This document shows positions 4,499 to 60,114 of a stretch of 64,000 bases of DNA, piece by piece. A program made the translations under genes and the position numbers. The stretch's first letter is position 1; each line of letters starts with the position of its first letter. Source of the stretch: Eledone cirrhosa (Eukaryota); the NCBI GenBank assembly GCA_964016885.1, contig OZ024746.1, positions 25,234,001-25,298,000 of the forward strand, read 5' to 3'. The notes under the pieces were generated by a model. It ran no database searches and had not been told where the DNA came from. It worked only from the letters and a program-made list of their open reading frames with translations.

Positions 4499-4988
4499 AT
4501 ATACACACATATATATATATTTATACATATGATGGGCTTCTGGTGTTTCTGTCTACCTAATTTTACTGACAAGACATTGGACAACCCGAGGCTATAGTAG
4601 AAGCCACACAGCATGACTGAACCTAGTACCACGTAGTTGTGAAGCAAATTCCTTTATTTCATATTTCATATATATTCAATTAAACTTCTTTTTTTTTAAA
4701 TCCAAAGTAGAGTACAATTTAGGGACACTAGTTGAAGGCCAAAGATGATTTAGTATCACTATTTGGAGACCTCAGCCAGCTAGTGGACAAAATAAAGTAC
4801 AGTTTAGTAGACATTGAGTGGATTGGAGCAATGTAAAATAAAGTGTTTTGCTCAAGGATACAATGTTTTCCCTGCTCCAGAAATTGAACTGACAACTTTA
4901 TGATCATGAGACCAGCACACTAACCACCAAACCACACACCTTCACCAATACTTTGTATTACTGTATTTTCTATAAATTATCTTTGCAG

Positions 4989-6053
4989 ATTATGAGGACC
5001 GGTTAAACAAGCTGTTTCCTGCTGAATTAAAAAAGCACCCTTGCAGAAGTGCTTCATCATCAAAACAATCAGACATAAATACAACAAAAACACATTTAAG
5101 AACTGCCCCGTCAATGATTTCTCCACAGAGTTCTGTGATTACATTAGACAGTGACAATCCCCCCACGACTGTATCTTCACAAAGTGGATTTTCTCGAGCA
5201 CGTAATACAAACTGTGAACTAGACACTGAAGTTACACATGTACAGTTAACCAACCAACAAAACAATCATATTTTTACTCGAAATTCCCAAATTATTGATC
5301 TTGAAAGTCCAACCAGTCCTTCTGGCAGCTTTAATTTTTCCAGAAATGTATCAAAACCTTCTCAGTATATGGATCATGAAAGTCAACCTAAAATTGTAAA
5401 CAACATCCAGAAAACGGGTTTGGGACATTCACGAAACATCACATCAAATCACCCACAAATAAACAACAGTGAAAGTAATTTTTCTGTGAGTGATCACCAC
5501 CAAAATACAGTATTACAAGGATGTGTTGGTAGTGAAGCTAGTGGTCGTGCTATCATAAATATACCTTCACAGAATGTAGATAGCAGACACGAGAACCAAA
5601 CCAACACCAATGTCTGTCTCACGAGAGATGAATCACAGATGGAATTATTAATGGATGTTGTTATTGATGAGGACTATTCACCAGAGAGCTGGAACGAAAC
5701 TTCACCCAGCATCTCTGTCCAGGACAACACCTCAAATAACTTTCAAAACAATAAAGAGAAACATTTACCTCTATTGTCAATACCTGCTAAAAGATCTAAC
5801 TTTTCCAATTCTAATCAGATTAATAACAACAATAATAACAGTAATATTAGTAATAGTAGTAGTAATATTAATAATAATAGTAATAATAGTGATATAATCA
5901 AATTAGATTTGGAAACGATAGACTCTGCTAATGTGCCTGTTACAGACATCAAAATAGAAGATGTGAAACATTGTCTTGATGATGAAAAGTTTACACTGTT
6001 AACAGATGCTACCAACAACCCTAATGATGTCATACATACAAATGGATACTCTG
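4989..6053 (+). CDS. Gene A, large Ser/Asn-rich low-complexity exon
   Basis: ctttgcag| acceptor, 1065-nt open frame containing ORF 5114-6076, G|gtaagt donor (phase 1). Confidence 0.85.
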
Positions 6054-6569
6054 GTAAGTACTTAAGTATCTATTGACCATCATAATATGAGAACAAAATA
6101 TATTTTTCTTTGTTTTATTTTTTTCTTATATTTTCAATAATAGATGGTATGGTGTTTTGGGTTTTTTTTTCTTTTGTTGAAGTTATTATCACCACAACTG
6201 ACAGCACCATTAATATCATCACCAAGTTATGGGCAAATTGAGGCCTGTTTGTCATTCTGAATGGCATGCCTAATTTCAAAATTGCCTTGAATTTCTTAGT
6301 TGTGTGGCCTGCCTTATGATGGGCCACATCCTATAAAAAGTTGGCCTATTAACATCATCACTGACACCACCACCACCACCACCATCATCACCATCTCATC
6401 ACTACCACATATCTTAACCATACAACCATTCTTGTACTTGTCTTAACTTCACAGCCATTGCTGAACCTACCCAAACCATACACCATGTCTGCACCTTAAA
6501 ACTGGACATCTTTTTTACTTCTAGTCATGCAGTTATGAAATTTTAAGTAAATGTTGTTGTATAGCTAGA

Positions 6570-15300: not shown

Positions 15301-15306
15301 TTTATT
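15301..15306 (-). promoter_or_regulatory. Candidate polyadenylation signal of the long PCMT1 isoform
   Basis: AATAAA on the - strand about 160 nt after the SDEL stop codon, followed by U-rich sequence. Confidence 0.5.
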
Positions 15307-15467: not shown

Positions 15468-15486
15468 TTATAATTCATCAGAGGCC
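15468..15486 (-). CDS. PCMT1: PCMT1 distal terminal coding exon (K-A-S-D-E-L-stop)
   Basis: ttatttttctcattatttttccag|G GCC TCT GAT GAA TTA TAA. The leading G completes the phase-2 AA left at donor 29369. Confidence 0.75.
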
Positions 15487-18189
15487 CTGGAAAAATAATG
15501 AGAAAAATAATTAGAAAAACAATTTAAAAAGATATCTGTGGCGAGAGGGTCGAAAGACTGCATGAAGTGGAGTAATCTCATTTTAACCTGTGGTGGGTAG
15601 GAATGGTTGATGAATGATTGAGTCAACATAGGTTAGAGAGGCCCCTCTGGTTTTGTCAAAGACCAGACAACCTTTCTTGTGCTAGCAGCATGATAAAATA
15701 CTCCTACTGTACTCTGTAAAGTGGCAGTGCTGGTGCCACAATAAAATGAACTTTGCTTTCATCTTTTTGAGGTTAGTCCAGAGGACAATAATTTGGTGAA
15801 ATTGTTAAAAGATTCAGATGACATGCTTTACAGTGTCTGATCTGGCTTTGTACATTCTGAGTTTAAATCCAAATCCTGCTGAGGTCAATGTTGCTTTTCA
15901 CCCTTTTGAGGATTAATAAATAAAGTACCAATCCATAGGTGGTGGATTGGCAGACTTTTTAAAGAGTTGGATGGGATGCTTTGCAGTATCTGTTCTGGAT
16001 CTGTGTGTTTTGTGTTCAATCCTACCTCGTGTGACTGACAGCAGTGATGCCACTTCTGTCAGGAGTTGCCACCAACAGATAGTATCAGCAATGGCAATAG
16101 TTTCCTTGATCCAATCTGGTAATAGCTCTTTTTTTTTTTGCTAAGAGTTGTAACTGGCAGATAGTATCAGTAAAGAAAGACCAATGGAAATATTGCTTCT
16201 TTGGTCCAATCTGGCAAACAGCTCCTTTCTTCTGCCAAGAGTTAACACTGATATAGTATCAGTAATAGCAAGACCAACGGAAGCAGTTTCCTTAGTTCAA
16301 TCTGATGATCAGCTTCCTTTATTTTGAAAATACTAATGAACTTAGAAGGATTTAGTAAACCAACTTATTATTACAAAGCTTTGGGTTACATAAAATTATG
16401 TTAGAAGATTTTAATAATCCTTTCATGACCATATTTCTATTAATATATACAGTATTTCAATTAATTAATGAAAAATTGAAAGGATTTACTAAAATTATTA
16501 ATCATTTCATTATTAAGATGTTGTAGGGTGGTGGATTAGCAGTATCTGTAGAGTGTCAGACAACATACTTTGCAGCATATTGTTACATTCTAAGTTCAAA
16601 TCCTGCCAAGGTTAGCTTTGCCTTTCATCGTTACGGGGGTCAATAAAATAAAGTATCAGTAGTGCACTGGGGTTGATTTTATTGACTTAACTCTTCCCCC
16701 AAAATTGTTGGCTTTGTGCCTAAATCAGAAACAATTATTAAGATGTTTCTAACATAACAATAAATTAAATTATGTTGGAGGATTTGGTGGTTTTTTACCT
16801 TTGACCGGGTTAATATCAAAAGGGTTATATATTAACAAAAGAATGGGGAGGGGTTGAAGGAATTGTGGTGATAAAACAAAAATTTGTAGATAAACAGAAT
16901 AATTGACACTAAAAGTGACAAATGTTGGTGTTCCATCATGGTTACAGTCAATGTGCTGAAGTAGGTAAAAAAAAGTAATGGTGGCTCTTGTCAAAAGATC
17001 AAATAACTTTGCTGTAGATGTGTAAGTCAGAAGATTCAACAGAAACAACAATAATAACAACAAAACAAGTGTACATAAAGAAAATCTTCAGACGTCTGTA
17101 GAAACTGGTCAGTAATTAATTTTTAACCCCTTTACCATTATTTTTAATGAAATTTTGAAAATAATCAAGAATAAGATTTTTCTCATTAAGTTGGTATAAG
17201 GCTGTTGGATTGGCAGCATACAGTTACATCCCTTTACATTCTGAGTTCAAATCCCGCTGAAGTTAACTTTGCCTTTCATCCTTAAAGGGTCGATAAAATA
17301 AAGTATCAGTAACACATTGGGGTCAATTTAATTGACTTTCCCCTTCCCCAAAATTGTTGGCCTTGTACCTAAATCCAAAATCATTAATATTGGTTAACTT
17401 TGCCTTTCATCCTTACGGGGTCGATAAAATAAAGTACCAGTAATGTACTGGGTAATTGTTGGCCTTGTGCCAAAAGTAGAAACAATTATTAAGTTGATGG
17501 TTGGAACATAACTTGACAAAGGTTCTTATATAAAATTATGACAGAATGTTTTTAAATAAATATAAACTGAATCAGGGATGGTTTCAGTTGATTTAATATC
17601 AAAAGAGTTAACAGATGAAGTCAGTGGCCAGGTCATAGAGGTTCGACAAAAATGTTGACACCTTAAGAAATAAAAAATATAACAACAGTTTTTGTGTGTT
17701 TTTAAATAACTAAAACATGTCTTTCATGATGCAAATGCTGTGTGTGTGTGTAATAATATATTAAATGTACAGATGTACAAATGAACATGCGCAAGAAATT
17801 ATTCAATACTAAAAGCAGAGTAATACACATTAAACAAGTTTAAAACAGTTTACTGCAATTTCATCTTATGATTCTTTAGAATTGAGATGAAACTACATTT
17901 TTCAGAAAAAAGTCATGAAAAATCACAGTGGAGAGGGGGAGATAACAATATTATAGAAGAAAAGTAGTGGTGGGGAGGATCAGTCAACTTTATATGAGAT
18001 AGTAGTTACATGGTGTAGTGGTTAGGGTGTTGGAATCACGATCATAAGACCCTGGCCAATGTATTGTGTCCTTGAGCAAGATATTTCATTTCACATTGCT
18101 CTAGTTTACTCGGCTGAAAGGAAGTGAGAACAAGCAATAGCAGCTGAGCATTAACTTGTGCAACAGAGAGGTGTCTTGTCTTTTCGTAA

Positions 18190-18540
18190 GACTGGGGTCC
18201 CTATCATTAAAACACCCAAGAAATCTCCTTTGAGATACACCCTCATAGAAAGCTAACTAAACCTACATAGGTGTGAGCTGAAACAACAACCAAACCCTAT
18301 GAGATGCAACAATGTAGGAGGTTAGTTATAACCTACACAGAGCTGTAATAACAACATAAAACTGGGAGTCCCTATCATTAACACACTCAGGAAACCTATA
18401 AGTTGCAACATCATATGAGGCCAGCTTAACCTACATAGGTGTGAGCTGTAACAACATCATTAGACTGAGGCCTCTATGAAGTGTAACCTCATAGGAGGTC
18501 AGTTAAACCTGTATAGGTACGAGCTCTAACAACAGCAATG
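18190..18540 (+). repeat. Imperfect tandem repeat family (CCCTATCATTAAAACAC...AAACCTACATAGGTGTGAGCTG)
   Basis: Repeated units. An inverse-orientation array lies at 20150-20830, with related copies near 40820-41020 and 48795-48890. Confidence 0.7.
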
Positions 18541-19589
18541 TAAAAAGGTATACTGAAAATATTTAACAAAGAACCACAACAGTTGTTTGAAGTGAAAATG
18601 AAGAAACCAAAGAAATGTCACATTATTTCTTTGCTACATTATAACTGCCATATTTTTAGAGAAAATATGAAATTGGGAATGTTTTGGATTCTTTTTTCAT
18701 TTTTTAATCCCCGGACACAACCTCTCTAGTGTTAATGCCACAATAAAATGTACTACGTGGACACTGGAAAGTGGTAATGTTAGTGTTATGATAAAATCCC
18801 CTAGTACACTCTATAAAGTGAAAGTGCTGGTGCCACACTAATGTGCGCCCAGTACACTCTGAAGTGGAAATGCTGGTGCCACTATATAATGCACCCAGTA
18901 GAGTCAGTTGAATGGTTGGCATTAGGAAGGCCATCCAGTCATAGAAACTATGTCAAATTATAGAATGTATCAGCAAGATGCGGTTATCTGACCATGCCTT
19001 TTCTCAGATCGTGACAACCCATCCCAGCATGGAAAACAGATGTGAAATGATGATGATTATATATATTTTGAAATAGAAGTTTCACCATAACAGCAACTAA
19101 ATAATATAGTCTAATAATGGAGCGTATAAACCCACTGAATGGAAAAAGATGGGTTGAGTGGTTTTATACACCCCATTATTAGATTGGGGTGGTGAATTGG
19201 CAGTATCAGTAAGGCTGTAACTCTATGCTGCAAAGCATAGAGTTACAGCCCTTTATGATCTGAGTTCAAATCCCGCCGAGGTTAACTTTATTTTATCAAC
19301 CTCATGAGGATGAAAGGCAAAGTACCAGTAATACACTGGAGTAATTGCTGGCCTTGTGCCAAAAGTAGAGACAATTAGTTAGTTAATGTTATGGTGAAGC
19401 TTCTATTTCTATTTCAATTCTAAACTTTGCTCACTGTGTTCCAAACATACTTCCTTTATTTATTTATATATATGGTGGAGGGGAGGGTTTACCAATGCAG
19501 TGCTACATGAAAATAATTAGTTTGAAGAACAATCATCACAACAAACAAAGACATCAACAACAGCTAAACCAACTTACCAAATTATGTCT

Positions 19590-20010
19590 ACTTTTCAGTA
19601 GTCTTGTCTCTCATTGCTAAAACTCTTCTTGCAAAATAACGCCAACTGATGTGGACAGACAGTAATGGAATTATTGGTTAGTAGAGAATTGTTGTTTCTA
19701 ATATATATTGATATTTGAAAAAGAAAATCCCTCCAGAAATGTAACATTGATGAAGAACAATGGGAAATCATGGCCAAAAACAGGTCTGAATGGAGGCAAG
19801 CTATTCGTAAGGGAACAGAAGCTTAAGAAAATGAAAGGCAAAGCAGCCAAGTGGTAAAGCATGCAGCAATGAAGGCCAGAACCAACTCTGTAGAGCATTC
19901 CATTGAGTGTCCAGTATGCAGCTGCCTCTGTACATCAGATTTTGGCCTGAGATCCCACATGAGGGTACACAAATGAATGAAGTGCTAGGTTGGACTTTAT
20001 CAATCATGAT
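19590..20010 (+). mobile_element. RTE/BovB-like LINE 3' fragment with C-terminal zinc-finger motif
   Basis: KSLQKCNIDEEQWEIMAKNRSEWRQAIR followed by ECPVCSCLCTSDFGLRSHMRVH. Confidence 0.7.
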
Positions 20011-20149
20011 AATCAACCAACAAAAATATTGATATTTTAGTTGATGAATGGAGCATCATGTGGACAATGTAACTGAGGAATAATATGTGGTGTTTGGATT
20101 TTATCTACATGATGGAGGGGATAATAAGATGTAGAGGAAATGGTGTTAT

Positions 20150-20830
20150 GACAGTTCTCACCTATGCAACTTTATTTGACCTTATATGAGGTTGTGTCTC
20201 ATAGGTAACTTTCACAAATGTTTTAATGATAGGAACCCCAGTTCTATCATGTTATTGTTACAGTTCACACCGATATAGATTTAGTTGGTCTACAATGAAG
20301 TATCTCATTGGAGATTTCTCAGGTGTTTTATTATGTTGTTATAGCTCACACTTACATAGGTTTAGCAGACCTCGTAATAGAATGTATTTCATAGAAGTTT
20401 TCTTGGGCATTTTAATAATAGAGCCCCAGTCTATGTTATTACAGCTCACACCTATATAGATTTAGCTGGCCTCATGAGGTTGTCTCTCATAGGAGGTATC
20501 GCAGATGTTTTAATGAAAAGAACCCTACTCTTATGTTGTTACTGCTAAAACCTATGAAAGTTTAGCTGGCTTCTTATGAGGTTATATCTCATAGGAGGTT
20601 TCTTGAGTGCTTTAACGACAGGAACCCTAGTTCTCTCATGTTGCTGTTACATTTCACACCTATGAAGGTTTACCTGGACTCTTAATAGGTTGTATCTCAT
20701 AGGAGGTTTCTTGGGTGTTTTAATGATAGGAGGCCAAGCCTTTTCATGTGGTTGCTACAGATCACATTTATGAATGTTTAACTGGCTTCCTACAAAGTTG
20801 TATCTCATAGGAGATTTCTCAGGTTTTTTT
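20150..20830 (-). repeat. Imperfect tandem array, reverse complement of the 18190-18540 family
   Basis: Repeated TATCTCATAGGAGGTTTCTTGGGTGTTTTAATGATAGGA...CACACCTAT units. Confidence 0.75.
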
Positions 20831-22559
20831 ATGATAATGGTCACAATCTTATGAAAAGAAAATGAAGTGTTTTGCTCAAGATTTGCTCAAGATCACAACA
20901 TTGTGCCTGGACCAGGAATCAAACCCACAACCTTATGATCACAAGTCTAACACCCTAACCACTAGGTCACAAACCTTCACTATATAAAGGGAATGTTGTG
21001 AATGAAAAAGAAAGGAAAAAATAGATTGAATAATGGATAGAGACAGAGGAGGGGCAATGAGAGAGACAGAGAGAATTCTGGTACAACTTCAACTGTAAGA
21101 AAATGAAAGACAAAAATTTTAAACAATGGTAAGTTGGTAAACTATTCTCAAAGAGAGGGACTGACAGTAAAAACTCCTATAAACCTCACAACTGTGCATT
21201 ATTTAAACCCTTGTCTCTAAAGTTATGACTATTTAATCATTTCATGACTATTTCTATCAAAATATACATTTCAATTAATTAATGAAGAATTTTATATACA
21301 CCTGAGCAACCTCATAGGAGACCAGCTAAACCGCTGCAAGATTTAACTCTTTCCCAAACATATTTCTAATGAAATACACTATCTCAATTAATTAATGAAA
21401 AATGGAGGGGGGGGGGTTTCTAAAATTATTATCTATTTCATTACAAAGATAATAATTTAACAAATGGTTCTTATATAAAATATCATGGTAGATTTAAATT
21501 TGTACCCTTTTAAAATGGATGGTTTTGTTTCATAGAACCTGAGCCTGGTTGGTATTAAAAGTATTAAAAAGACTGAACTATTTTCAGATGAATTCTTCTA
21601 GAAAGATGTTTTTTTATAATTGTTTACTAGTTTCACTCATTAGACTGTGGTACTACCTTAAAGAGATTTAGTCAGTCATATCTACTCCAGGACATTTTTT
21701 TTATCAATACTTTTACAAAATATAAACAAAAACAGACAATGACACCCACACACACATACATATCTATATATACCCATGGCCAATCATGACTGATTCCTTC
21801 CTCTCCTCAATAGCCAGTCAGGTGTACGATGAGCTGACTGTGAAAACAACTGGCATAATGACCAATATAACGTTTTAATAGTTGAAGCTAGTGTTAACAC
21901 ACTATTTTAAAGATAACATTTTGTCAGTGTTATGGGCTTTTGTGTGTGGAGATTGTTTAGTGTATGGTTTTGCATGGAGGTGAGTGGACAAATGGCAGAA
22001 AAAGGGTTAAGAATTCTTGACATCATCATCAACATTTTGTCTAGCTATATATAGATAATATATCACATAAGAAACGGAGAATCAGTGGTGCGACGAATAA
22101 GATTTATTAGACATATTACAATTGTATCTCTAGCGACCAGCTTGAGGCACAATCAATGCAGCGATCAAACCAAAGTCTGAAATCGCAAGATCCTCGGATA
22201 TGTCTCGATGTATATGTGTGTGTGTGTATATATATATATATAGAGAGAGAGAGGGCGAGCTAATATACATAAAGAGGACAGTCAAATTACTAAAACTAAA
22301 TAGTTTAAAACATATTTCTTTCATAATTCCATAAATCTGTGTAGAGTACAGATACATTGAGTCTGAAATAATTGAAACAACTAAACAGAAATTGATAAAA
22401 ACATATTTGACTTGAAAATGGAATTATAAAAATAACTAGTAGACAGCGCAATCAATAATTCTTAACTAGGTTCCAACAGAGGATGCTGCTCCCATGACCC
22501 TCTCAAGAATAAGTAAGAGAAGAAGGAGGAGGAGGAAGAGTAGATGCCAATTATCAAAG

Positions 22560-22930
22560 GAAAATGAAATGGAAAGAGGAATATATAAGTATAGACAATA
22601 CCAAAATGGATAAAGTGCCAGGTGTTCCATGTGGAAGGAAGACCAAGAAAGATGTGGGCAGTGGTGGTGAAAGTTGACCTCAAGAAACTGAACCTTACAG
22701 AGGAGATAATAAAGGAAAGAGACAAGTAGAAAAGAAGCTATGGAAAAGGAAGACCAAGAAAGACATGGATAAAGGTGGTAAAAGCTGGCCTGAAAGAAAC
22801 TGAACCTCACAAAAATGGTAGAAGAAAGAGACAAGTGGGGGGGGGGATACTGTACTGGAGAGGACTCATCTAACCTATACAAGCATTGAAAAATGGATGT
22901 AAACACAATGACGATGATGATGGAGGTGGT
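22560..22930 (+). mobile_element. RTE LINE extreme 3' end with internal duplication and (GAT)n tail
   Basis: KCQVFHVEGRPRKMWAVVVKVDLKKLNLTEE occurs twice, then CTAACCTATACAAGCATTGAAAAATGGATGTAAAC..GATGATG, the tail shared with local SINEs. Confidence 0.75.
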
Positions 22931-23009
22931 GGTGATGGTGATGAAGATGAGGATAATGGTTATGATGGTGATGAATGGAAAGAATATATAAGACAATATC
23001 AAAATGAAA

Positions 23010-23770
23010 ATATCATCATTATCATTGTTTTACATATATGTTCCACATTGGCATAGGATGGATGGGTTGTTACAGCCTGAGACTAGACAGGTCAGATGAC
23101 CATATATAGCTCATACATTCCATTTTGGCATGGTTTCTATGGCTTGATGCCCTTCCTAACCTAAAGCACTTACAAAGTGTATTGGATGCATTTTATCATG
23201 GCACCAACACTATTACTTTCCAGAGTGTATGGGATGTATTTTATCTAGGCATCAGCACAACCACTTAACAAAGTGGACTGGGTGCATTTTATTGTGATAC
23301 CAGCACTATTGCTTTACAGAGTGCACTGGATGCATTGTATTGACACCAACACAAGCATTTTACAGAATATACTGGGTATATTTTATCATGACACTAATAT
23401 TACCACTTTACAGAATATACAATATACATTTTAGCATCAAATCAACACTACCACTTTGCAGTATATTATGGGAGGCATTTTATCATAGCACCAACACTAG
23501 CTACCACGTAGTAAAGTGTATTGGGTACATTTAGTTGTGACACCAATGCTACCACTTTACTGAGCGCACTGGGTATATTTTATCATGACACTAACACTAC
23601 CACTTTACAGAATGTACTGGGTCACAACCACGTAAAGTGTACTGAGTATATTTTATTGTGACACCAAAACTACCACTTTACAGAGCGTACCAGGTGCATT
23701 TTGTTATGACACTAGCGCTATCACTTTACTGAGTGTACTGGGTATATTTCATCGTGACACCAACACCAGG
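23010..23770 (-). repeat. SINE-derived element with an expanded ~41-bp minisatellite
   Basis: About 14 imperfect CACTTTACAGAGTGTACTGGGTGCATTTTATCATGACACCAACACTAC units attached to the SINE tail; similar arrays at 18730-18900 and 59230-59530. Confidence 0.8.
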
Positions 23771-26129
23771 GCAATCGTGAATGGAAAGGAGAATATATAA
23801 GTAAACAGAATATCAAAGTGCTTTAATTCTAAATGAATCTGACCTTCAAGGTGGGACAGCAACAGTAAGAAGAGTGGCTCAAACGTAGATGGAGACTAGG
23901 TGGAGAGTCAGAACTATTAGCATAGACAGCAATATTCCAGATACCTGGTAATGGAAAACAACACAGAAATAAAGCAGCCACTTCAGAAAGACCTAAAGTA
24001 TGAGTCTACCTATTGTTTTAACCCTTTTGATACCAAACCGCTTGAAACCATCTATGAAAGAAAGCTGTTTATTTTAAATTGTTTATATTTATCTAAAAAC
24101 CTTCCATTATAATTATTTGTTAAGTTACTTTCCAAACACCAGGTTGACCCTTCTGATACCAAACCACTTGGAACTACCCCTGATTCTATGATACAAAACT
24201 GTTTGTTTTAAAGTGTTCAAATTTAACCCTTCCATCATAATTTTATGTAAGAACTTTTATTATGTTCAAAATACTAGACAATAATGAAAGGGGCATAGAA
24301 ATAGTATTGTGGGAAGTTGCTGAATGAGAATATATGAGTGAGAAGCTACCCCATGTGAACCCTATAAAGGGACCAGTTATTGAATTTGACAGCCAATAAA
24401 ACTAAAGAAGCTCCTCAAATTCATGCCATCTCTATCAGTTTGTTCACTAGAATAAGAGGGTCTCTCCATCAATATGGCTCTCAACTCTCACCATATCTCT
24501 ATCCTATCATACCGCCTGCATAAGACAACAGAAAATAGAACTACTGGCATTAGGATGGGCATCCAACCACAGAAATCATGCCAAATATGAGACATATGAG
24601 CAAGACATGGTTCTTTGACCAATCTAGTTTCAGACCAAGACAACTTGTCTGACCCATGGACATAAAAAGATGATTATGATGATGATCGCTATATCTCAAC
24701 ACAAAGAAGAAATAAGTAAGCAGAGCTGAAACTGTAGATTACTGTATCTAAATTACACCTCTAACCATCTTCAACAATTAAGTAGTTCTGATGGTTTGGG
24801 ATACAAACTTTGGTGGCAAATAATGAAGGGGATAATGGCCCTTAAATAGCATAGCAAAGGCATCAACCATTGGATGTTAGTACAAAGGTTGATTAGTAGA
24901 AAGGTGCTAATACCGATAAGTAGAAACAGAAAGACAACAAAAACAAACATTTTAAGGCCATTTTCCTAGGGGTTAACCTGGTGGGTACTAAGACAGTTCT
25001 TTCTGTTTCCCTACACTTTAACCCCCCCAGGCCACATTTCCTTGTCCATCACCTTTTGCCATATCTTCCTCTTCTTTCTTCTATATATATTTCCACCACT
25101 GCTCATATCCAGTCACTTTCTCAACTGTCTCATTCTATTTCTCTGTACAATACTCATTACTGCCTCTGGACCTTTGAATTACAGGTACAATTCACGACAT
25201 GGCACTAATACTAGTAAAGTATATTGCAAAAGAACCCTTTCCACTCTATATTGTCTTTGTCTTTTTAAGGCAAATGTGCTAAAGAGTGTAATTTGAAGAA
25301 TAATGATGACCAGAGTTTCTTATATTTTCTTTAATACTGTGTCTATCCTGGTTTTCATAATAGGTACACTGTATCCCTGCATGTCATAAGAAGTGAATAA
25401 ATGGGTTGGTGTCTGAGGCATCTAGCTGTAAAATACTGCCTTGAAAAGTCCTGTCCAACCCATGCCAACATGGAAAGGTGGACACAAACAGTGACAAAGA
25501 TAATATATCTATATAAAATCACTATGACAGAAAGTTGAAGTATATCACAAATTACTTTATTAGGAGCAGGGAGGGAGATCTTTGTAAGTTTCTTTTTACA
25601 ATACATTTTTCAAACATATTTTTCTCTGTTTTCCTTATAGAGTTTTCTTGCAGATTTCACTGCAGAAATATTCTCATTAAGTATTACATGTTTAAAAAAT
25701 ATAGTTCATTGTGTAAATTCAATTCAGATGTCAGCTCTGCTTCTTCCCCATTGAGATATCTGGTTATGCTAGAATGTCAGCTATGAGCAATTATTACCTA
25801 GAAATAAAGTAGTTGAAAATGTTATAGATGTTTCTAGAATGGATATGTAGAGACAATAAAATATTTGCATGGCAAGACATAGCTAGTATCAGCATTTCTT
25901 TCAATAAATGTTTCTTTCCATTGGTCATATAGATCTAGTTATATAAACAGAGCTGTGTAGAGCAATATAGAACAATGTAGTGCAATGCAGAACTATATAG
26001 GCCAATGTAGAATAATGTAGAGCAATGCAGAGCTATGTAGAAGTATGTAGAATTATGTACTGCAATGCAGAACTATATAAAGCCAGAACATGAGCCAGTG
26101 TAGAACTATATGGAACAATGTAGAGCAAT

Positions 26130-26650
26130 GTCTGCCAAGGCTTACTCTTCAGATTTCAACCAGGATGTCATGAGTCTGCCTTCCTTCGTATGCCCACTCC
26201 TCTTTCTGGTTACCATTTAAGGGAAGTTTTACTAATCTATTCCTTGGCATATGTAGCGAATAGTAAAGTATCTTCTGTCATTTTAGAATGATGGTATCCT
26301 GTAAACAACTCAGCCTAGTTCTTTCCATAACCCCTTCATTTGTTATATGGTCACACCAAGAAATTATAAGCATGGTTGTAAAGTACCACCTGTGGAAGAC
26401 ATTTACAGTTCTATCGATTCTGCTGGGTTTTTTCCACATCTTGCAAGTGTAAATCACATTAGAAGGACAATTGATGTATACAGACAGAACTTTGTGTCTT
26501 GGCCTTTGGAAGAGTTGGACTGTATGGGCTTCAGGTATTGGAAGACAGCTGCAGCTTTGCTGAGACTCTTCTCCACATCAGTTTCTGAGTTGTGATCATT
26601 AGTTTAATGCTCACCAATTGCCTTCTTCCTGATATTTTCCTTTTAAAAAA
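26130..26650 (-). mobile_element. Highly degenerate LINE (RTE-X-like) 3' fragment
   Basis: Weak translated resemblance only (HMPRNRLVKLPL...). Confidence 0.4.
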
Positions 26651-28369
26651 TGGTTGGTGAAGAAGATTAGTTGATGAAGTAATAGCTAATAAGAATATTT
26701 TGTGATGTATGTATGATAATGTCTGCAACTAATTGTATTTAATTTAATTACATTTTTCTTTACATTGTACTTTAGGGTACACCTGTTTTGTTTTTTTAAA
26801 TTAATAAAGAATTAATTAACAAGCATATCAGGCATACACACCACTTGATTGCATCACAATAAATATCTTTAGTCTAAAACCACAAATTTTCACATGATTC
26901 TATTTAAAAGTAAAGATACTATGAGGATCAGCTAAAAAGATCATAGACTGATTATGAAGGAGTGATGCTAGAGCTGTAAAATCTTGCATGCATTAATTTC
27001 AACTCTTCTTATTAATAAATGCCTTGTTTCTTTCCAGGGACTATGTTGAAAAATACACCTCATTTGGTCATTCCATGAGAGTATCTTAGTCAGCTTATGA
27101 TAAGTCCCTTGTATTAAGCCTTTAAATTATAGACATTTTCTGTTAAATAATTTCAGCATGTTAAGAGTTAAAATGTTTTTTCACTTTTTAAATAATGCAT
27201 TTCAATTTATTAAAATACTGATTTTTAAAAAATGTTAATTAATTAGAAAAAATTTGATGATGAAAACAAATAAATCCAAAGATCATATTTTTTAATACTT
27301 AATAAAAATAATTAGAAGTGCTTTTATAAAATCCATGCTTAAACAATAAATACTTTGTTCTTTTGTGACAACACAACCACATGTACATAATTATACAAAC
27401 TCTTTTACTGGCTTTAGTCATTAAACTGTGGCTGTGCTGGGGTACCACATTAAAGAGATTTAGTCAATCATATTGAGCCCAATACTTATTTTTTAAGCCT
27501 GGTACATATTTTAACAATACAGACCATAGGTACATATGTAAATACAGATACACACACAAACACATACACACATATATATATATATATGTATGTGTGATGG
27601 GCTTCTACAGTTTCTGTCTACTTAAGTTTACTCACAAAGCATTGGTCAATCAAAAGCTATAGTAAAAGGTGTCCGACAGTGAGACTGAACCTGAAACACA
27701 GTGAAGTGAGCTCCATGCCATTGTGTAGCCGATTTTCCCTAAATTTCAAGGCATATTATGCACATAAAAAAAAATCATTTTCTTGATCCCCTAGGGCCCG
27801 CATTAGGTGAAAACCTGCATTTTTCCTGCTTCATCGAGGAAAATCTTAAAGATTATCCAGCCATCAGAGCATTCGGTTTATTTTCTTTACATATTGTCCA
27901 GGCATGCAGTTTTTCCACGATTAGGTCTGTTGGCGGCCCGCGTTCCAAAATACCTTATCCCGTGCAACGCCGGATACCACTGCTAGTATATATATATATG
28001 AGCAAGACAAGGTCAGCTGACCGGATACTGCCCACAACAAGACAACCCATCTAACCCATGCTAGCGTGGAAGAACGGACATAAAACGGTGATGATAATGA
28101 TGATATATATATATATATATATATATTTATACACATAAATATATAATATCGAGAACCAACTGCTATATTGATGTATACAGCACAGAAATACACGAAGATG
28201 CGATAGCATCCAAACTACAGAACTAACTCAAACATTTATCTAGTGACAAAGACAATCTATTTTTTGACAAAACCAAACAGTATTTACTACAATCCTATTT
28301 CTTAGTCATAACTCATAGTCATACCACAATCATTATCAGTCATATCACTATTTATCTCAGTCATACCAT

Positions 28370-28530
28370 ATTTATTACATGCCATACCTCATTTATTACA
28401 TGCCATACCACATTTATAACATGACCACACCACAATATCACATGACCATAGCACGTCACATGGCCATCCTACCGTATCACATGATCATATCACAGTGTAA
28501 CATGACCATATCACAATATCACATGACTAT
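28370..28530. repeat. ~21-bp minisatellite (ATCACATGACCATATCACAAT)
   Basis: Seen directly. Confidence 0.75.
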
Positions 28531-28929
28531 ATGGAAAGATTTTAAATGGATGGCTTTGTTTCATAGAACCAGAGGCTGTTTTGACTGGGTTGATATCAAA
28601 AGGGTTAAATATATGCATGCAAATGAAATAAATAAAAATGAATTACATTGCTAGCAGGGAGGGAAGACATTAAATGATGATGATAATGATACAGTAACAC
28701 AATCCAATTTGTGTAATGCCATCAGAAGTACTAAATAACAATAACAACGACAAGCATTTTAAAGCCAGTTTCACTGCTAAATCAGGAGTTGGTCTTGCAG
28801 CCCCATGATAGTTGTTATAGTCATCATGGGGTCTTTTTTGAAGTAATGTTTCATAGTTGGATGCCGTAGCTGGCTCCAATCCTTTTAGTTGCATTATATG
28901 GCATGCAGGGGTACCATGTACTTATTCTT

Positions 28930-29320
28930 AACTGGATATACACAGCAATAAACTGGATACACACAATAATTGTTTCTACTTTTGGCACAAAGCCAGCAAT
29001 TATCCCAGTGCATTACTGGTGCTTTATTTTATCGACCCTGTAAGGACGAAAGGCAAAGTTAACCTTGACAGGATTTGAACTCAAACCGTAAAGGGTCGTA
29101 ACTATGTGAAGCATGGCGTCCGACCCTCTACCGATACTGTCAATCCAACGCCCTGAACTGGATATACACAGCAGTAAACTGAATATATACACAATAGAAA
29201 ACTGGATACACAGGAGTAAACTGGATATACACAGCAATTCAACTAGATACACACAGCAATAAATTGGATATACACAGCAGTAAACTAGAGATATACATCA
29301 ATAAACTGGGAATACACAGC
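28930..29320. repeat. 21-bp minisatellite (AAACTGGATATACACAGCAGT) interrupted by a SINE at about 28967-29155
   Basis: The same unit is present on both sides of the SINE. Confidence 0.8.
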
Positions 29321-29364
29321 CATCAGAGGTATTGAGCACTCCAAATAAATCAATAAAAATGTAC

Positions 29365-29538
29365 TCACTTTGGCCATTGCTTCTCTTTGCTGGTCAGTGG
29401 TACATAGATGACTCCCATGTGGTTCTTCTTTGTTACTGATCCATCTAGGTTTTTATCAATTTGTTGTAACATTTGGTTTTCTCCCTGACCTCCAACAGGA
29501 ATTACCATTCGACCACCAGGTTTCAACTGTTCAACTAA
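29365..29538 (-). CDS. PCMT1: PCMT1 coding exon 5 ([16 protein letters not shown]...[17 protein letters not shown] or spliced at 29369)
   Basis: Conserved PIMT motifs QLKPGGR and YVPLT; ttcag| acceptor; the AA|gtgagt donor overlaps a read-through AAG TGA. Confidence 0.95.
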
Positions 29539-30332: not shown

Positions 30333-30545
30333 TGATTCTGGCAAGACAGCAGCTGCTGCTCCAACATGGATGGCATCAAAAGGAGCATCAGGTTTGTACC
30401 CTAATCGCCCATCACCAACAACTAATTTCATCTGACCCTTATCTAGTAAAAATCCAAGTTTCTGTTTCTTATTTACATTGGCAATTGATGATTGTACCAA
30501 GTGGTCTATATGATCAATTCCAACAGCCATGCCAGTTTCACCAAC
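30333..30545 (-). CDS. PCMT1: PCMT1 coding exon 4 (VGETGMAVGIDHI...VGDGRLGYKPDAPFDAIHVGAAAAVLPES)
   Basis: PIMT motif APFDAIHVGAAA; 213 nt, phase 0/0, AG/GT boundaries. Confidence 0.96.
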
Positions 30546-31584: not shown

Positions 31585-31689
31585 CATTAATGACATACAC
31601 GCAGTAAGGTAACCACTTCCTGAACCAACATCCAGAGCTCGGTTTCCTTCAACTAAATGATCTTTTAATAACTCCAGGGCATATGCGTG
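31585..31689 (-). CDS. PCMT1: PCMT1 coding exon 3 ([35 protein letters not shown])
   Basis: SAM-binding motif I LDVGSGSG; 105 nt, cag|...|gtgagt. Confidence 0.97.
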
Positions 31690-32294: not shown

Positions 32295-32431
32295 CATGTG
32301 TGGTGCACTGATTGTGACAGCATAACCAATAGTTTGTGGAGAATCAGCATATGGGTTGCGTTGGCAGAAGTCACCACGATCAACAGCTTTCATTGTGTCA
32401 CGGACTCGTTCTGTTTTGATTATACCATTTT
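32295..32431 (-). CDS. PCMT1: PCMT1 coding exon 2 (QNGIIKTERVRDTMKAVDRGDF...YADSPQTIGYAVTISAPHM)
   Basis: PIMT motif TISAPHMHA spans the junction; 137 nt, tttgtag|...|gtaagt. Confidence 0.96.
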
Positions 32432-35039: not shown

Positions 35040-35369
35040 CGAAGCGGCTTTTGAAGTGCCCATGCCACTTGAAACATTGCATACAACCAATTGCTTCGTC
35101 GCTGTAAGCTTGCTGAAGCATGCTCAATGTCTCTGTAGCAGACTTCCTAAGTTGAGGGTAAAATTTCATGTTGGCTTTTTGTTCTAAATTCCCATTCATG
35201 ACAAAATTGCAGGCTACAGCATACACATAATCACAAAAACACAAATTGCAAAGTGAACACTGATGTCACTCAGCACACTGGCGCATGAAGCTCTCACTGT
35301 TCACTCAACCGTGTGTTGCCATCTGTTGGCACGCTACAAAACTAGTCCAGAAACTTTTTGATGCCACCT
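35040..35369 (-). mobile_element. Tc1/mariner remnant: 5' TIR and N-terminal HTH of the transposase
   Basis: TA|AGGTGGCATCAAAAAGTTTCTGGACTAG terminus; NLEQKANMKF..LRKSATETLSMLQQAYSDEAI..QCFKWHGHFKS is mariner HTH-like. Confidence 0.8.
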
Positions 35370-43732: not shown

Positions 43733-43787
43733 GAAAGAGATTTTCAACAAGTTGCGAATTAGAACTGCCACTAGATCGCCAAGCCAT
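43733..43787 (-). CDS. PCMT1: PCMT1 first canonical coding exon (MAWRSSGSSNSQLVENLF-)
   Basis: Typical PIMT N-terminus MAWxS.G; 55 nt then C|gtaagt; joins 32431 in frame. The joined product is 227 aa (short) or 232 aa (SDEL form). Confidence 0.93.
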
Positions 43788-44489
43788 GCTTGCAAAATAT
43801 TTTGGAAACACTAAACAGGCTAAAGCGACCTTGAACCCGCAACTTAACAGACTTTTCGCAATGCTTGGTCGAAAGTGAATGTGACAGGGAAGTGGTGTCA
43901 TTGGCGCATCAACCTGATTGTATAAAAAATATAGAATGTATATGACGAAACGTGGCACAAAAAAAAGGTCTTGTAAAAATATGGAATTGAATTAACGAAA
44001 TGGAGCACAATAGTGGTTTTATTGGCAGATGAAAGAGGTCGTATAAAAGTATAGAATTGACGTGACAAAATGAAATGTGGTACAGAAGTAAAACAAGTTT
44101 TCCTCTTTTAATTTATATTATTTATTTGTACATTTAATTTTTTTGCTTGTAGATTTTGTTATATTTCAGGAGGAAGTCTGTCTTGATTTAATTAATATAC
44201 GTATTATTTTCATCAAATATTTTTTTTTGTTGCTAAACAAAAAACATGCTAAATATTTCATTATGAAAAGTATTTCATCGTGCGTTAATAATTATAATTT
44301 TACATGTTTTTATCTTCACAATTACAGAATGAAAATATGCACACAAATAATATATACAATACTTAATTACATAAATATTTCATATAAAAATATAGAATGA
44401 AAGTGAAAGAAAATATTAATCCCACAACAGTGTGTCAATCGTTCGCACACTACAAAGGGCGCCGAAGCTTTTTTTCTAATACTTTTTGA

Positions 44490-55950: not shown

Positions 55951-56208
55951 TATATATATGTGAGTCCTTAGCCATTCAACAAAAAAAAAAAAAGAGATCG
56001 ATTACCAGACTTTCAAAAAAAGCCGGTGTCAGCTGTCAGTAAAAGAATATATAATAATTATTTTTTATATATACCACTAGAACCTTCTGCCACTGATAGT
56101 GACGGGCTGATAAGCTAATTTAATACGACTGATACTTCGTCAAGAAAGGCACTTGTAGCTAGCTAGCTCTATAACCACAGTATATTTTATTTTAGATACG
56201 AGAAGAAA

Positions 56209-56552
56209 ATGTCAGAGCCGACAATCAGCGAACATGTTTCTAAAAATCCTGCTATAGACTGTCATACCAATATTACAACTACAGAAATGCATACAGCAGG
56301 GGAACCACTAAGAATCGTAGAAACTGGGTTCCCGCCAATAGAAGGGAAAACCATTTTAGATAAAAGGAGATATGTTCAAATGAATCTTGATTCGTACCGA
56401 AGATTTTTGATATATGAACCTCGAGGACATTATGATATGTACGGTGCCCTTCTGATTGAACCTGACATACCCTCGGCTGACATTGGGGTCTTGTTTATGC
56501 ACAACGGAGGTTTCAGTACCATGTGTGGACATGCGGTGATTGCTTTAGGAAG
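56209..56552 (+). CDS. L3HYPDH: Proline-racemase-family enzyme (trans-3-hydroxy-L-proline dehydratase-like), coding exon 1
   Basis: EMHTAGEPLRIV, EPRGHYDMYGALL, FMHNGGFSTMCGHAVIALGR (catalytic MCGH); AG|gtaggt donor phase 2; acceptor tttag at 56195 upstream of the ATG. Confidence 0.93.
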
Positions 56553-56583
56553 GTAGGTTGTATCTGTTTCTGAACATCTAAAC

Positions 56584-58260: not shown

Positions 58261-58604
58261 CAATTCATTATCTTCCTCTCTCTCTGAATGATAGATACTC
58301 CACTCATCCACCAAGACATTTCCTTTTCTTTCTGTCCAGTCATCTAGTTGCTCCATATTCATCACTCATGTCTCACTCCCATAAACCATAGCACTTCTAA
58401 CATATGCAGCATACACAATTGCTTTCCATTCTGTCCAGCTTTCTCTGCTGCTCCATGTACATCACCTATGTCTAGTTCCCATAAATCATGGTACTTTTTA
58501 CACATACGGCTTACACCTTTCCCTTCTATTTTTTCCAACCTTCCCTGCTACTCCATGTTCATCACAGAACACAACAAAGCTAATTATTTTTTCTACTCCA
58601 AAAG

Positions 58605-58765
58605 ATATGCTGTTGATAAAGGTTATGTGAAAGCAATAACCACTCCAGAAACTCAAGTGAATATCCAGTGTCCATGTGGATTGGTTAAGACCTACGTTTC
58701 CTATAACGATGGACAGTCTGGTTCTGTTAGATTCCACAGTGTTCCCGCATTTGTACATTCTAGAG
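58605..58765 (+). CDS. L3HYPDH: L3HYPDH-like coding exon 2 (YAVDKGYVKAITTPETQVNIQCPCGLVKTYV...VRFHSVPAFVHSR)
   Basis: CPCGLV and RFHSVPAF are characteristic of animal L3HYPDH; aaag| acceptor phase 2, G|gtaagg donor phase 1. Confidence 0.92.
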
Positions 58766-60114
58766 GTAAGGACAATTATCATAACACCATTCATTCCACC
58801 AAGTATTCTGACATACTATACACACCTCACACTGTTTGTGGCATTCAGTTAAGTAGCTTTAACAAGAAACAATCGTCATTGTTGTCATCAAACATCCATT
58901 TTTCTATACTAGAATGGGTTGTCCCAGACCAATTCAGTACTTAATTGGAACTACTATTCTCTCAGACAGGCTGGGCATCAAAACTCACCTACACATGTTT
59001 TGGCAGTGTTTCTACAGCTAAATGCCCTTCCCATCACCAACCACTTTACAGAGTGTACTGTATGCTTTTTCTATCATGTCACCAATACTAGGAAGGTTGT
59101 CATATTCTAGACAAAACAGAAGAGACCTGTCCACTCATTGTTTGGCTTGGTTTCTATGGCTGGATGCCCTTCCTGACACCAACCACAATAAAAAGCATCC
59201 ATTTCACCCCGTAAACTGGTAGAGCTGGTACCACGATAAAAACACCCAGTTCACCCTATAAAGTCATAATGTTGGTGCATTGATAAAAGCATCCACTACA
59301 CTCTGTAAAATGAAGGTGCTGGTGCCACAATAAAAACACCCAGTACACTCTGTAAAGTGGTAGTGCTGGTGCCACAATAAAATGTGCCCAGTAAATTCTG
59401 TAAAGTAGTAGTGCTGATGTTTGGAGAAAATACATTCAGTACACTCTGTAAAGTGGTAGTGCTGGTGCCATGACAAAAGCACCCAGTATGTTCCAGAAAG
59501 TGGTAGTGTTGGTGCCATGATAAAAGCATGCAGTGCATCATTCATAAACGATGATGTACTGCATGCTTTTATCATGGCACCATCCTGTATCCAGTCCATC
59601 CTGTAAAATGATTAGCATTAGGAAGGGCATCCAACCATAGTAACTTTGCCAAAATGGAGTGTATGAGTAGGATGTTGTCTGACCTGACTAGTATCAGAAC
59701 ACGACAACATATCTAATCAATGCAAAGATGTAAAAGGAAGATGATGATAATGAGCATAATGATGATGGTGGTGGTGGTGATGATGATGATGATGATGGTG
59801 ATGATGTACATTTATTCATACACACTTTTATTTAGTAGGAAATCATATACAAAAAGTTGGGTGCCAAGATAGATGTTGACTTATCAACCTTTATCTTAGT
59901 AAGAATAAATAAAGTATTAAGAACAGTCTGTCAATGATATTGTATGTCATAGATACGAATACAATTGGACATGGCATTTGTCAACAGATATTTACAGTCA
60001 TGTCTGGTAATATATCATATTGTTATAGGCCTCAAAGTACAGTGGAACTGTTAGTAAACTGAAACTATTTTTCCCATAATAAATATTGAGAGAGAAATAC
60101 AATAAGAGAGAGAT

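Follow-up and report, generated by a model that had tools for sequence, protein, structure and literature searches.

Why should a repair enzyme that is supposedly cytosolic carry an ER-retrieval-like tail? The question is raised by the PCMT1 locus of the octopod Eledone cirrhosa, which was analysed in a window of 64,000 nucleotides (contig OZ024746.1, positions 25,234,001 to 25,298,000). The original prediction for this locus was a two-way switch, in which read-through of the exon 5 donor gives WPK-stop and splicing to a distant micro-exon gives a tail of the xDEL type.

One gene with at least four possible C-terminal tails

The locus is the single PCMT1 (PIMT) gene of this octopod and lies on the minus strand. 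A search with exon 4 returned one match in the genome (G000), which ruled out a paralogue as the origin of the distal exon. The exons common to all forms are as follows:

43733..43787, minus strand: exon 1 from the canonical ATG at 43787 (context AGC-ATG-G, strong; donor GTAAGT)
32295..32431, minus strand: exon 2, 137 nt
31585..31689, minus strand: exon 3, 105 nt, carrying a binding motif (11 protein letters, not shown)
30333..30545, minus strand: exon 4, 213 nt (Pfam PF01135, E 4e-16)
29369..29538, minus strand: exon 5, 170 nt (shared phase-2 donor AA/GTGAGT; Pfam PF01135, E 1.5e-15)

The frame is open across all five exons, 209-211 of the 226 core residues are identical to Octopus models, and the SAM-binding and PIMT motifs are intact. 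Exons 4 and 5 scored 59.8 and 58.0 bits respectively on the PF01135 profile (curated cut-off 20.3). An Octopus relative (P0122) scored 226.8 on TIGR00080 (cut-off 159), and its residues 40-264 are collinear with human PCMT1 (1I1N, E 1e-87). By profile, frame and motifs the product is a predicted member of the PIMT/PCMT1 family.

The one phase-2 donor of exon 5, which ends CCAAA/GTGAGT, feeds at least four possible C-terminal tails:

29365..29368, minus strand: donor read-through, Lys completed and then TGA (WPK-stop; 265-aa long form, the length of Octopus isoform X4)
25794..25797, minus strand: candidate acceptor before G-TAA that may offer another way to WPK-stop (rank 14/733; AATAAA at 25561)
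23917..23944, minus strand: last-coding exon ending CCLC-stop, CaaX-like (acceptor rank 2/733; tail as in O. vulgaris CAI9724008.1, both 273 aa)
19578..19645, minus strand: stop-containing cassette exon with a basic tail, WRYFARR... (stop ends at 19588; donor TTG/GTAAGT 10 nt later)
15468..15486, minus strand: coding part of the distal last exon, 19 nt (KASDEL-stop)
15301..15306, minus strand: AATAAA poly(A) signal belonging to the distal exon; GT-rich stretch after it

Reading on past the donor gives WPK-stop, and the donor thus doubles as a Lys-stop as had been predicted. The strong acceptor proposed 13.9 kb downstream, with an AATAAA beyond it, was likewise confirmed. Splicing from 29369 to ...TTTTTCCAG/GGCCTCTGATGAATTATAA at 15486 on the minus strand would yield KASDEL-stop, the stop ending at 15468, and this acceptor ranked first of 733 AG sites from 29368 to 15400 on a crude home-made pyrimidine score. 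Only two of 3233 YAG sites in the window open a short peptide ending DEL, the distal exon being one. The predicted product of 270 aa aligned without gaps to Octopus RefSeq isoform X2 (KAYDEL), with 242-244 of 270 residues identical.

The label of micro-exon did not hold. The term denotes an internal exon of ~30 nt or less with both an acceptor and a donor, whereas here the exon is the last one, ~200 nt long, of which 19 are coding, and its poly(A) signal lies ~160 nt past the stop. Nor was the exon easily missed by gene predictors, as had been supposed: the Octopus RefSeq models XP_014787330.1 and XP_029637503.1 include it as KAYDEL, and K-type and xDEL tails are both modelled in three Octopus species. 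Both tails of the proposed switch are supported but its two-way character is not, as the 13.9-kb 'intron' between exon 5 and the distal exon contains two further conserved last-coding exons, CCLC at 23944 and the basic cassette at 19645. The cassette acceptor is weak (rank 90/733); its predicted product has 283 aa, as do the two models that it matches, Octopus isoform X1 and one from Argonauta. The predicted isoforms of 265, 270, 273 and 283 aa equal modelled Octopus isoforms in exact length and without gaps, the support here being drawn from relatives, as gene models and assembled contigs.

A chance or decayed acceptor at 15486 would leave the distal exon unspliced in E. cirrhosa and WPK-stop as the sole product, and as a motif SDEL is weaker than the YDEL found in Octopus. 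Given a top-ranked acceptor, an intact frame, a poly(A) signal and an exact-length match to isoforms in three Octopus species, we regard this as very improbable.

Tails across animals

SDEL satisfies the Prosite pattern [KRHQSA]-[DENQ]-E-L as quoted in PMC2140024. According to the same source, Golgi localisation in human cells was significantly higher with ASDEL than with AKDEL, which makes ASDEL a weak retrieval variant, and in the receptor code an aromatic residue at -4, the case in AYDEL, serves as well as K.

The presence of an xDEL exon in relatives, on which the original prediction depended, was found in the KAYDEL models of Octopus and in a comparison of PIMT C-termini, where 25 of 30 animal PCMT clusters, from jellyfish to mammals, have a tail ending [DE][LFI]. 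In 24 of the 30, one jellyfish included, this tail occurs together with another, in agreement with the proposed deep conservation of a switch matching the mammalian RWK and RDEL. Such a tail was also present in 13 of the 18 clusters whose representative is without it; the sponge and weevil clusters had no xDEL tail. Moreover, among 163 distinct tails of 4-30 aa, 90 end in [DE][LFI], the count among control peptides being 46 of 2235, although P values for such counts overstate independence because the sequences are phylogenetically related. Position -4, which played no part in the selection of these tails, is K, R or H in 63 of the 90. At the other positions the variation, with E favoured over D at -2 and with L, F and in some cases I at -1, agrees with the receptor code in PMC2140024. 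Taken together, these patterns suggest that the xDEL tail is kept under KDEL-receptor-like constraint across animals.

The CCLC tail has its Cys at the fourth residue from the C-terminus, the position given by the CaaX rule for prenylated proteins. Cys at -4 was found in 18 of the 73 remaining tails, from five phyla, and in 84 of 2235 controls; elsewhere in these tails it was rarer (4/73 at -3, 4/73 at -2, 1/57 at -5). Several of the 18 are non-canonical as CaaX sequences (CTAW, CALH, CEIC), and in three the Cys directly follows the junction Arg, where the GT start favours Cys.

An upstream leader and the proposed addressing of PCMT1

Two features lie immediately upstream of the canonical start:

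43788..43901, minus strand: in-frame upstream ATG at 43901 (context CCA-ATG-A, weak) and 38-codon leader
43898..43909, minus strand: three-codon out-of-frame uORF, its stop overlapping the upstream ATG

The leader, which the original prediction did not cover, combines a basic portion with a hydrophobic core and has a small residue ahead of the canonical Met, a tripartite reading that comes from our own hydropathy and charge statistics. It shares 28 of 38 residues with Octopus models and 13 of 38 with the equal-length leader of a cuttlefish-cluster protein (0/100000 shuffles as high); mammal and cod leaders are also conserved with each other (0/2000 shuffles as high). Leaders of at least 8 aa were found in 133 of 174 representatives with the canonical start, a modelled leader being no proof of translation since annotation pipelines carry their models out to the earliest ATG in frame. 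An ESM Atlas search with the leader gave no usable match.

Compared with 646 control peptides from the window, the leaders of relatives have a hydrophobic peak at -11 to -8, a higher best 9-residue hydropathy (2.26 vs 1.41) and a lower D/E content (1.1% vs 5.4%). An uncharged, strongly hydrophobic 8-mer is present in 131 of 149 leaders, in a register fixed to the Met. The residue before this Met is small or aliphatic in 126/149 and charged in 6/149, exceeding what a purine at minus 3 would lead one to expect, and this fits an x-M-A signal-peptidase site. The leader is, from its sequence, a candidate ER signal peptide, with mitochondrial features present too. In corals, an anemone and sea urchins there are PIMT forms whose N-terminus appears by eye to be a classical signal peptide with an acidic linker; these forms are without the xDEL tail.

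As a separate observation, xDEL tails occurred in 68 of 174 representatives with a leader and 7 of 52 without (odds ratio 4.1, P 0.0004). This co-occurrence was not counted as support, because RNA-supported models gain both ends together.

The mitochondrial-like traits comprise a median net charge of +3, a near absence of acidic residues and Arg at -2 to -4 in 65 of 149 leaders, most of which are 19-46 aa long; the hydrophobic core of the octopus leader is just ~9 residues, with lysine on either side. The isoforms could thus be real and the leader a mitochondrial or dual mitochondria/ER presequence, with xDEL serving just the few molecules that are mistargeted or imported unconventionally, and plant PIMT2 is described as using alternative N-termini for organelle (chloroplast) targeting (PMC3847293). 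We consider this a serious rival but rather unlikely, as it sits poorly with the fixed register of the uncharged 8-mer and with tails that obey a KDEL-receptor code, which needs luminal exposure.

Alternatively, all forms may be cytosolic, with tails that tune stability, charge, activity or partner binding, an xDEL likeness that serves a cytosolic purpose and a leader that is rarely translated. PCMT1 is mainly described as intracellular and soluble (PMC8760697), TargetP is reported to find no targeting peptide in the short zebrafish proteins (PMC7859441), the upstream ATG is weak in context and overlapped by a uORF, and the tail comes after the last residues aligning to the human crystal-structure chain. 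However, this would leave unexplained the conservation of the leader sequence, the preference for K/R/H at -4 with L/F/I at -1 and the signal-peptide-bearing forms of corals and urchins, and we judge it improbable.

Our preference, held with modest confidence, is that two starts and the choice of last exon address one repair enzyme to several compartments, the leader being a signal peptide and xDEL an ER-retrieval tag. The model is built on exons, splice signals, frames, start contexts, the Octopus isoform match and the conservation of tails and leaders, from which we infer the addressing steps. Most ribosomes would pass over the first, weak ATG and begin at the strong canonical one, which would make the ordinary cytosolic enzyme. 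Those that initiate upstream would produce a leader that enters the ER translocon, with cleavage probably at the canonical Met-Ala or directly behind it. A leader-bearing form with an xDEL tail could then bind the KDEL receptor, and one with another tail would be secreted, whilst a cytosolic form with the CCLC tail may be prenylated, perhaps palmitoylated, and tethered to membranes. An ER-entering leader would explain xDEL on a supposedly cytosolic enzyme from jellyfish to humans. Endogenous human PCMT1 has been reported in culture supernatant (PMC8760697), and serum PCMT1 is mentioned in PMC12266796. METTL9 was considered as a precedent for an ER methyltransferase and dropped, since the relevant part of PMC7873184 describes no more than co-localisation, by GFP, with the ER and the mitochondria.

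As databases already contain the xDEL exon, that exon taken alone is modest news. The RDEL of mammalian isozyme II has been noted since 1992, and the conserved upstream-ATG leader is a candidate ER-entry route. If this is correct, animals would possess an unrecognised ER-luminal and secreted isoaspartyl-repair enzyme, which would resolve the isozyme II puzzle and give damaged secretory and extracellular proteins a repair enzyme of their own; a CaaX-like tail would add a membrane-bound class of PIMT. A luminal supply of SAM would be implied, and we know of none established in the ER lumen. The leader proposal also makes the old puzzle experimentally simple, human cells included. More tentatively, PCMT1 might have been combinatorially addressed since before the cnidarian-bilaterian split, through a leaky-ATG signal peptide (also the 58-residue extension in models from mammals) and a last-exon hub of KDEL-type, CaaX or no tag, with ER-luminal or secreted and, outside vertebrates, lipid-anchored forms.

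Comparison with known PIMT genes

Mammalian PCMT1 has isozymes I (-RWK) and II (-RDEL) (MacLaren 1992 and Potter 1992, cited in PMC9146343, PMC7696048 and PMC7859441), and the passages on isozyme II in these accounts give no ER-entry route. As predicted for E. cirrhosa, one gene produces C-termini that split at the same aligned residue into a short basic tail and xDEL. By contrast, the octopod gene has at least four possible tails over 13.9 kb, CaaX-like and long basic ones included, and its motif is SDEL. The mouse model NP_001394121.1 ends RWKDEL, a protein from which the mammalian exon geometry may be read as donor read-through to RWK with a second AA/G donor, like AA/GTGA here; WPK-stop would then arise by read-through as RWK appears to. 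No strong second donor was found within 370 nt past the exon 5 donor, and a mammal-like downstream donor is therefore unsupported in this gene.

Zebrafish Pcmt (RDEL) and Pcmtl (GDEL) likewise carry xDEL tails, but on two genes; their authors suggest that N-terminally extended isoforms may exist, the extension itself being left aside in the section concerned (PMC7859441). Arabidopsis PIMT2 resembles the present case in that one PIMT gene reaches several compartments via alternative ends, but it does so by varying its transcription starts and 5' splicing, the targets being chloroplast or nuclear, and a C-terminal tag switch is not described in the relevant parts of these reports (PMC3847293, PMC7859441).

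A further comparison is with the Octopus models (XP_014787329-34, XP_029637502-04, XP_036360041, CAI9724006-09). These differ in having YDEL in place of SDEL and in the KWY/KWF tail of isoform X3, for which the window holds no convincing counterpart, the candidate at 26389 extending 36 more codons. They correspond in having a leader of equal length, the tails K, KAYDEL, NWRY... and KYLEYCCLC, and 88-91% identity.

PCMT1 and the tails downstream of exon 5

The gene was identified as PCMT1, encoding the isoaspartyl protein-repair enzyme PIMT, by its Pfam match (PF01135). The genome searched for further copies (G000) gave a single match, and the nearest named relatives, among the matches listed (best 120 of 303), are Octopus and Argonauta proteins, which places the genome among the octopods. 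As originally predicted, the exon 5 donor doubles as Lys-stop, so that the sequence past it gives WPK-stop, and splicing of exon 5 to an acceptor at 15486 gives WPKASDEL-stop. This acceptor ranks first among the 733 AG sites between the donor and the distal exon, by a crude score devised for this analysis, and a short DEL-ending peptide is predicted at 2 of the 3233 YAG sites of the whole window, 15486 counted among them. The distal exon is almost certainly in use. It had been described as a micro-exon that gene predictors could easily miss; it is instead a last exon, and was not overlooked, because models from Octopus species already carry a KAYDEL tail.

Model tails of O. bimaculoides, O. 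sinensis and O. vulgaris are K, KAYDEL, KWF/KWY or a long NWRY..., with KYLEYCCLC in O. vulgaris, and assembled proteins of the Sepia pharaonis cluster end in K or KEYDEL. Searching the window with the Octopus isoforms located two more exons between the exon 5 donor and the distal exon. The four predicted proteins (265, 270, 273 and 283 aa) have the lengths of modelled Octopus isoforms and are gap-free. Features of the window are as follows.

29538-29369, minus strand: PCMT1 exon 5, donor AA/GTGAGT
23944-23917, minus strand: alternative exon ending CCLC-stop, acceptor rank 2/733
19645-19578, minus strand: stop-containing exon, acceptor rank 90/733, GTAAGT donor 10 nt past the stop
15306, minus strand: AATAAA of the distal exon, read in the sequence
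56167-56556 and within 58348-58944, plus strand: proline-racemase-family gene, exons (PF05544, E 5e-29 and 1e-08)
60106-62295: LINE-like 729-codon open frame, reverse-transcriptase domain (PF00078, E 3e-36)
4976-6076, plus strand: Ser/Asn-rich 366-codon open frame, no Pfam match

The proline-racemase-family gene and PCMT1 are divergently oriented, and the 4976-6076 frame is probably a large exon of an adjoining gene.

WPK-stop could arise in two ways, by reading through the donor or by splicing to an acceptor at 25797 that precedes G-TAA. The first AATAAA past the read-through stop (29028, minus strand) lies inside an apparent dispersed repeat, which we take to be an octopus SINE, and could serve WPK-stop as an intronic poly(A) site. 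No clear counterpart of the Octopus KWY/KWF tail was found in the window. An acceptor-like CAG/GTGGTAC at 26389 (minus strand) opens KWY..., its frame continuing for 36 codons more, and is possibly a decayed counterpart of that tail. Separately, 35044-35226 on the plus strand matches a segment of the additional N-terminal sequence in a 506-aa O. bimaculoides model (P0129); the match is on the opposite strand and contains a stop, suggesting that the model took in a repeat.

Tails across animals

Three protein searches (best 120 of 303, 5563 and 6743 matches) yielded 277 representatives, from which 30 clusters were selected and up to 15 members of each examined. On this sampling, tails ending [DE][LFI], the class that includes ASDEL and other xDEL ends, occur in 25/30 clusters and stand alongside another tail in 24/30; the analogy first drawn with the mammalian RWK/RDEL switch holds. 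The representative lacks such a tail in 18 clusters, in 13 of which some member has one. Positive clusters cover a jellyfish, molluscs, an annelid, a nemertean, ticks, termites, a crinoid, hemichordates, amphioxus and vertebrates. No such tail was seen in the remaining five: Argonauta (one model), a weevil, the sponge Dysidea, where RWK is present, and the signal-peptide forms of anemone and urchin.

Among the matches listed, tails of 4-30 aa (shorter or longer ones being left out) gave 163 distinct sequences, of which 90 end in [DE][LFI], compared with 46/2235 control peptides; K, R or H occupies -4 in 63 of these 90. In the other 73, Cys occupies -4 in 18, against 84/2235 controls, these relatives not being independent, and is scarcer elsewhere (-2, 4/73; -3, 4/73; -5, 1/57; -6, 0/42). 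The Cys(-4) tails come from a cnidarian, molluscs, arthropods, hemichordates and amphioxus. They can be read as CaaX boxes, for which several are non-canonical.

An upstream start and its leader

An upstream in-frame ATG at 43901 has a weak context (CCA-ATG-A) and is overlapped by a three-codon uORF, while the canonical ATG at 43787, 38 codons downstream, has a strong one (AGC-ATG-G). The intervening leader is identical to that of Octopus at 28/38 residues and to that of a cuttlefish-cluster protein, of equal leader length, at 13/38, which exceeds all 100000 shuffles; a mammal-cod leader alignment likewise exceeds all 2000 shuffles. Of the 174 representatives that have a canonical start (203 examined, among the matches listed), 133 carry a leader. 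Compared with 646 window-frame peptides, the 112 distinct leaders are more hydrophobic (2.26 vs 1.41) and contain less D/E (1.1% vs 5.4%); their hydrophobicity peaks at positions -11 to -8. The sequences show the anatomy, frames, start contexts and conservation of a PCMT1 with two in-frame ATGs and several predicted tails.

We considered the leader under the general rules for signal-peptide cleavage and for mitochondrial presequences. In an enlarged set of 149, Met is preceded by a small or aliphatic residue in 126 leaders and by a charged one in 6, a pattern that fits cleavage after x-Met-Ala. Median net charge is +3 and Arg occurs at -2 to -4 in 65/149, as in presequences, and a mitochondrial or dual leader is an unlikely but serious alternative. 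Routing into the ER, with retrieval by xDEL, is somewhat favoured. Leaky scanning would yield mostly cytosolic enzyme and, in part, leader-bearing enzyme, which the leader probably sends into the ER; there xDEL would retrieve it, and other tails would allow secretion. The CCLC tail may anchor the cytosolic form, and WPK-stop would be the plain form. That every PCMT1 form is cytosolic is slightly less probable still than a mitochondrial leader.

Comparison with known retrieval signals and PIMTs

The observed feature is real; models of relatives already include the xDEL exon, and it is the wider layout that holds the value. In combining two starts with a hub of tagged tails, that layout offers a testable answer to why PIMT bears an ER tag. 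In the literature searched (subscription journals and supplements outside its scope, so that an earlier mention is possible), nothing was found joining PIMT with CaaX, signal peptide plus KDEL, ribosome profiling or octopus, nor, judged mostly from listings, on isoforms with xDEL in invertebrates or a PIMT leader in animals.

Several relatives carry other leaders or tails. Coral, anemone and sea-urchin forms (P0290, P0295-P0302, P0305, P0330, P0352, P0362) have a signal-peptide-like start, judged classical by eye, and an acidic, Cys-containing linker without xDEL; they are candidate dedicated secreted PIMTs. A bird and crocodile PCMT-like paralogue (P0291, P0383-P0396), with a hydrophobic 20-residue leader and RDEF/RDEI in most, is a candidate dedicated ER form. 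Nematode models P0293, P0294, P0303 and P0304 (365-457 aa, very high scores) suggest tandem PIMT domains or fused models. Mouse NP_001394121.1 (P0371) has a third mammalian tail, RWKDEL, which would imply a second donor two codons past the first.

According to passages of PMC2140024, retrieval prefers E to D at -2, takes L, F and less readily I at -1, and works with F/W/Y at -4 no less than with K; there ASDEL, the exact motif of the window exon, was significantly more Golgi-localised than AKDEL. Passages of PMC8248988 have ADEL and DDEL secreted for the most part, and contain no match to SDEL. The mammalian RWK/RDEL switch is given in PMC9146343 and PMC7696048, secretion of human PCMT1 in PMC8760697 and targeting of plant PIMT2 in PMC3847293. 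PMC7859441 describes zebrafish RDEL/GDEL tails, detects no targeting peptide on the short forms and states the possible existence of N-terminally extended isoforms.
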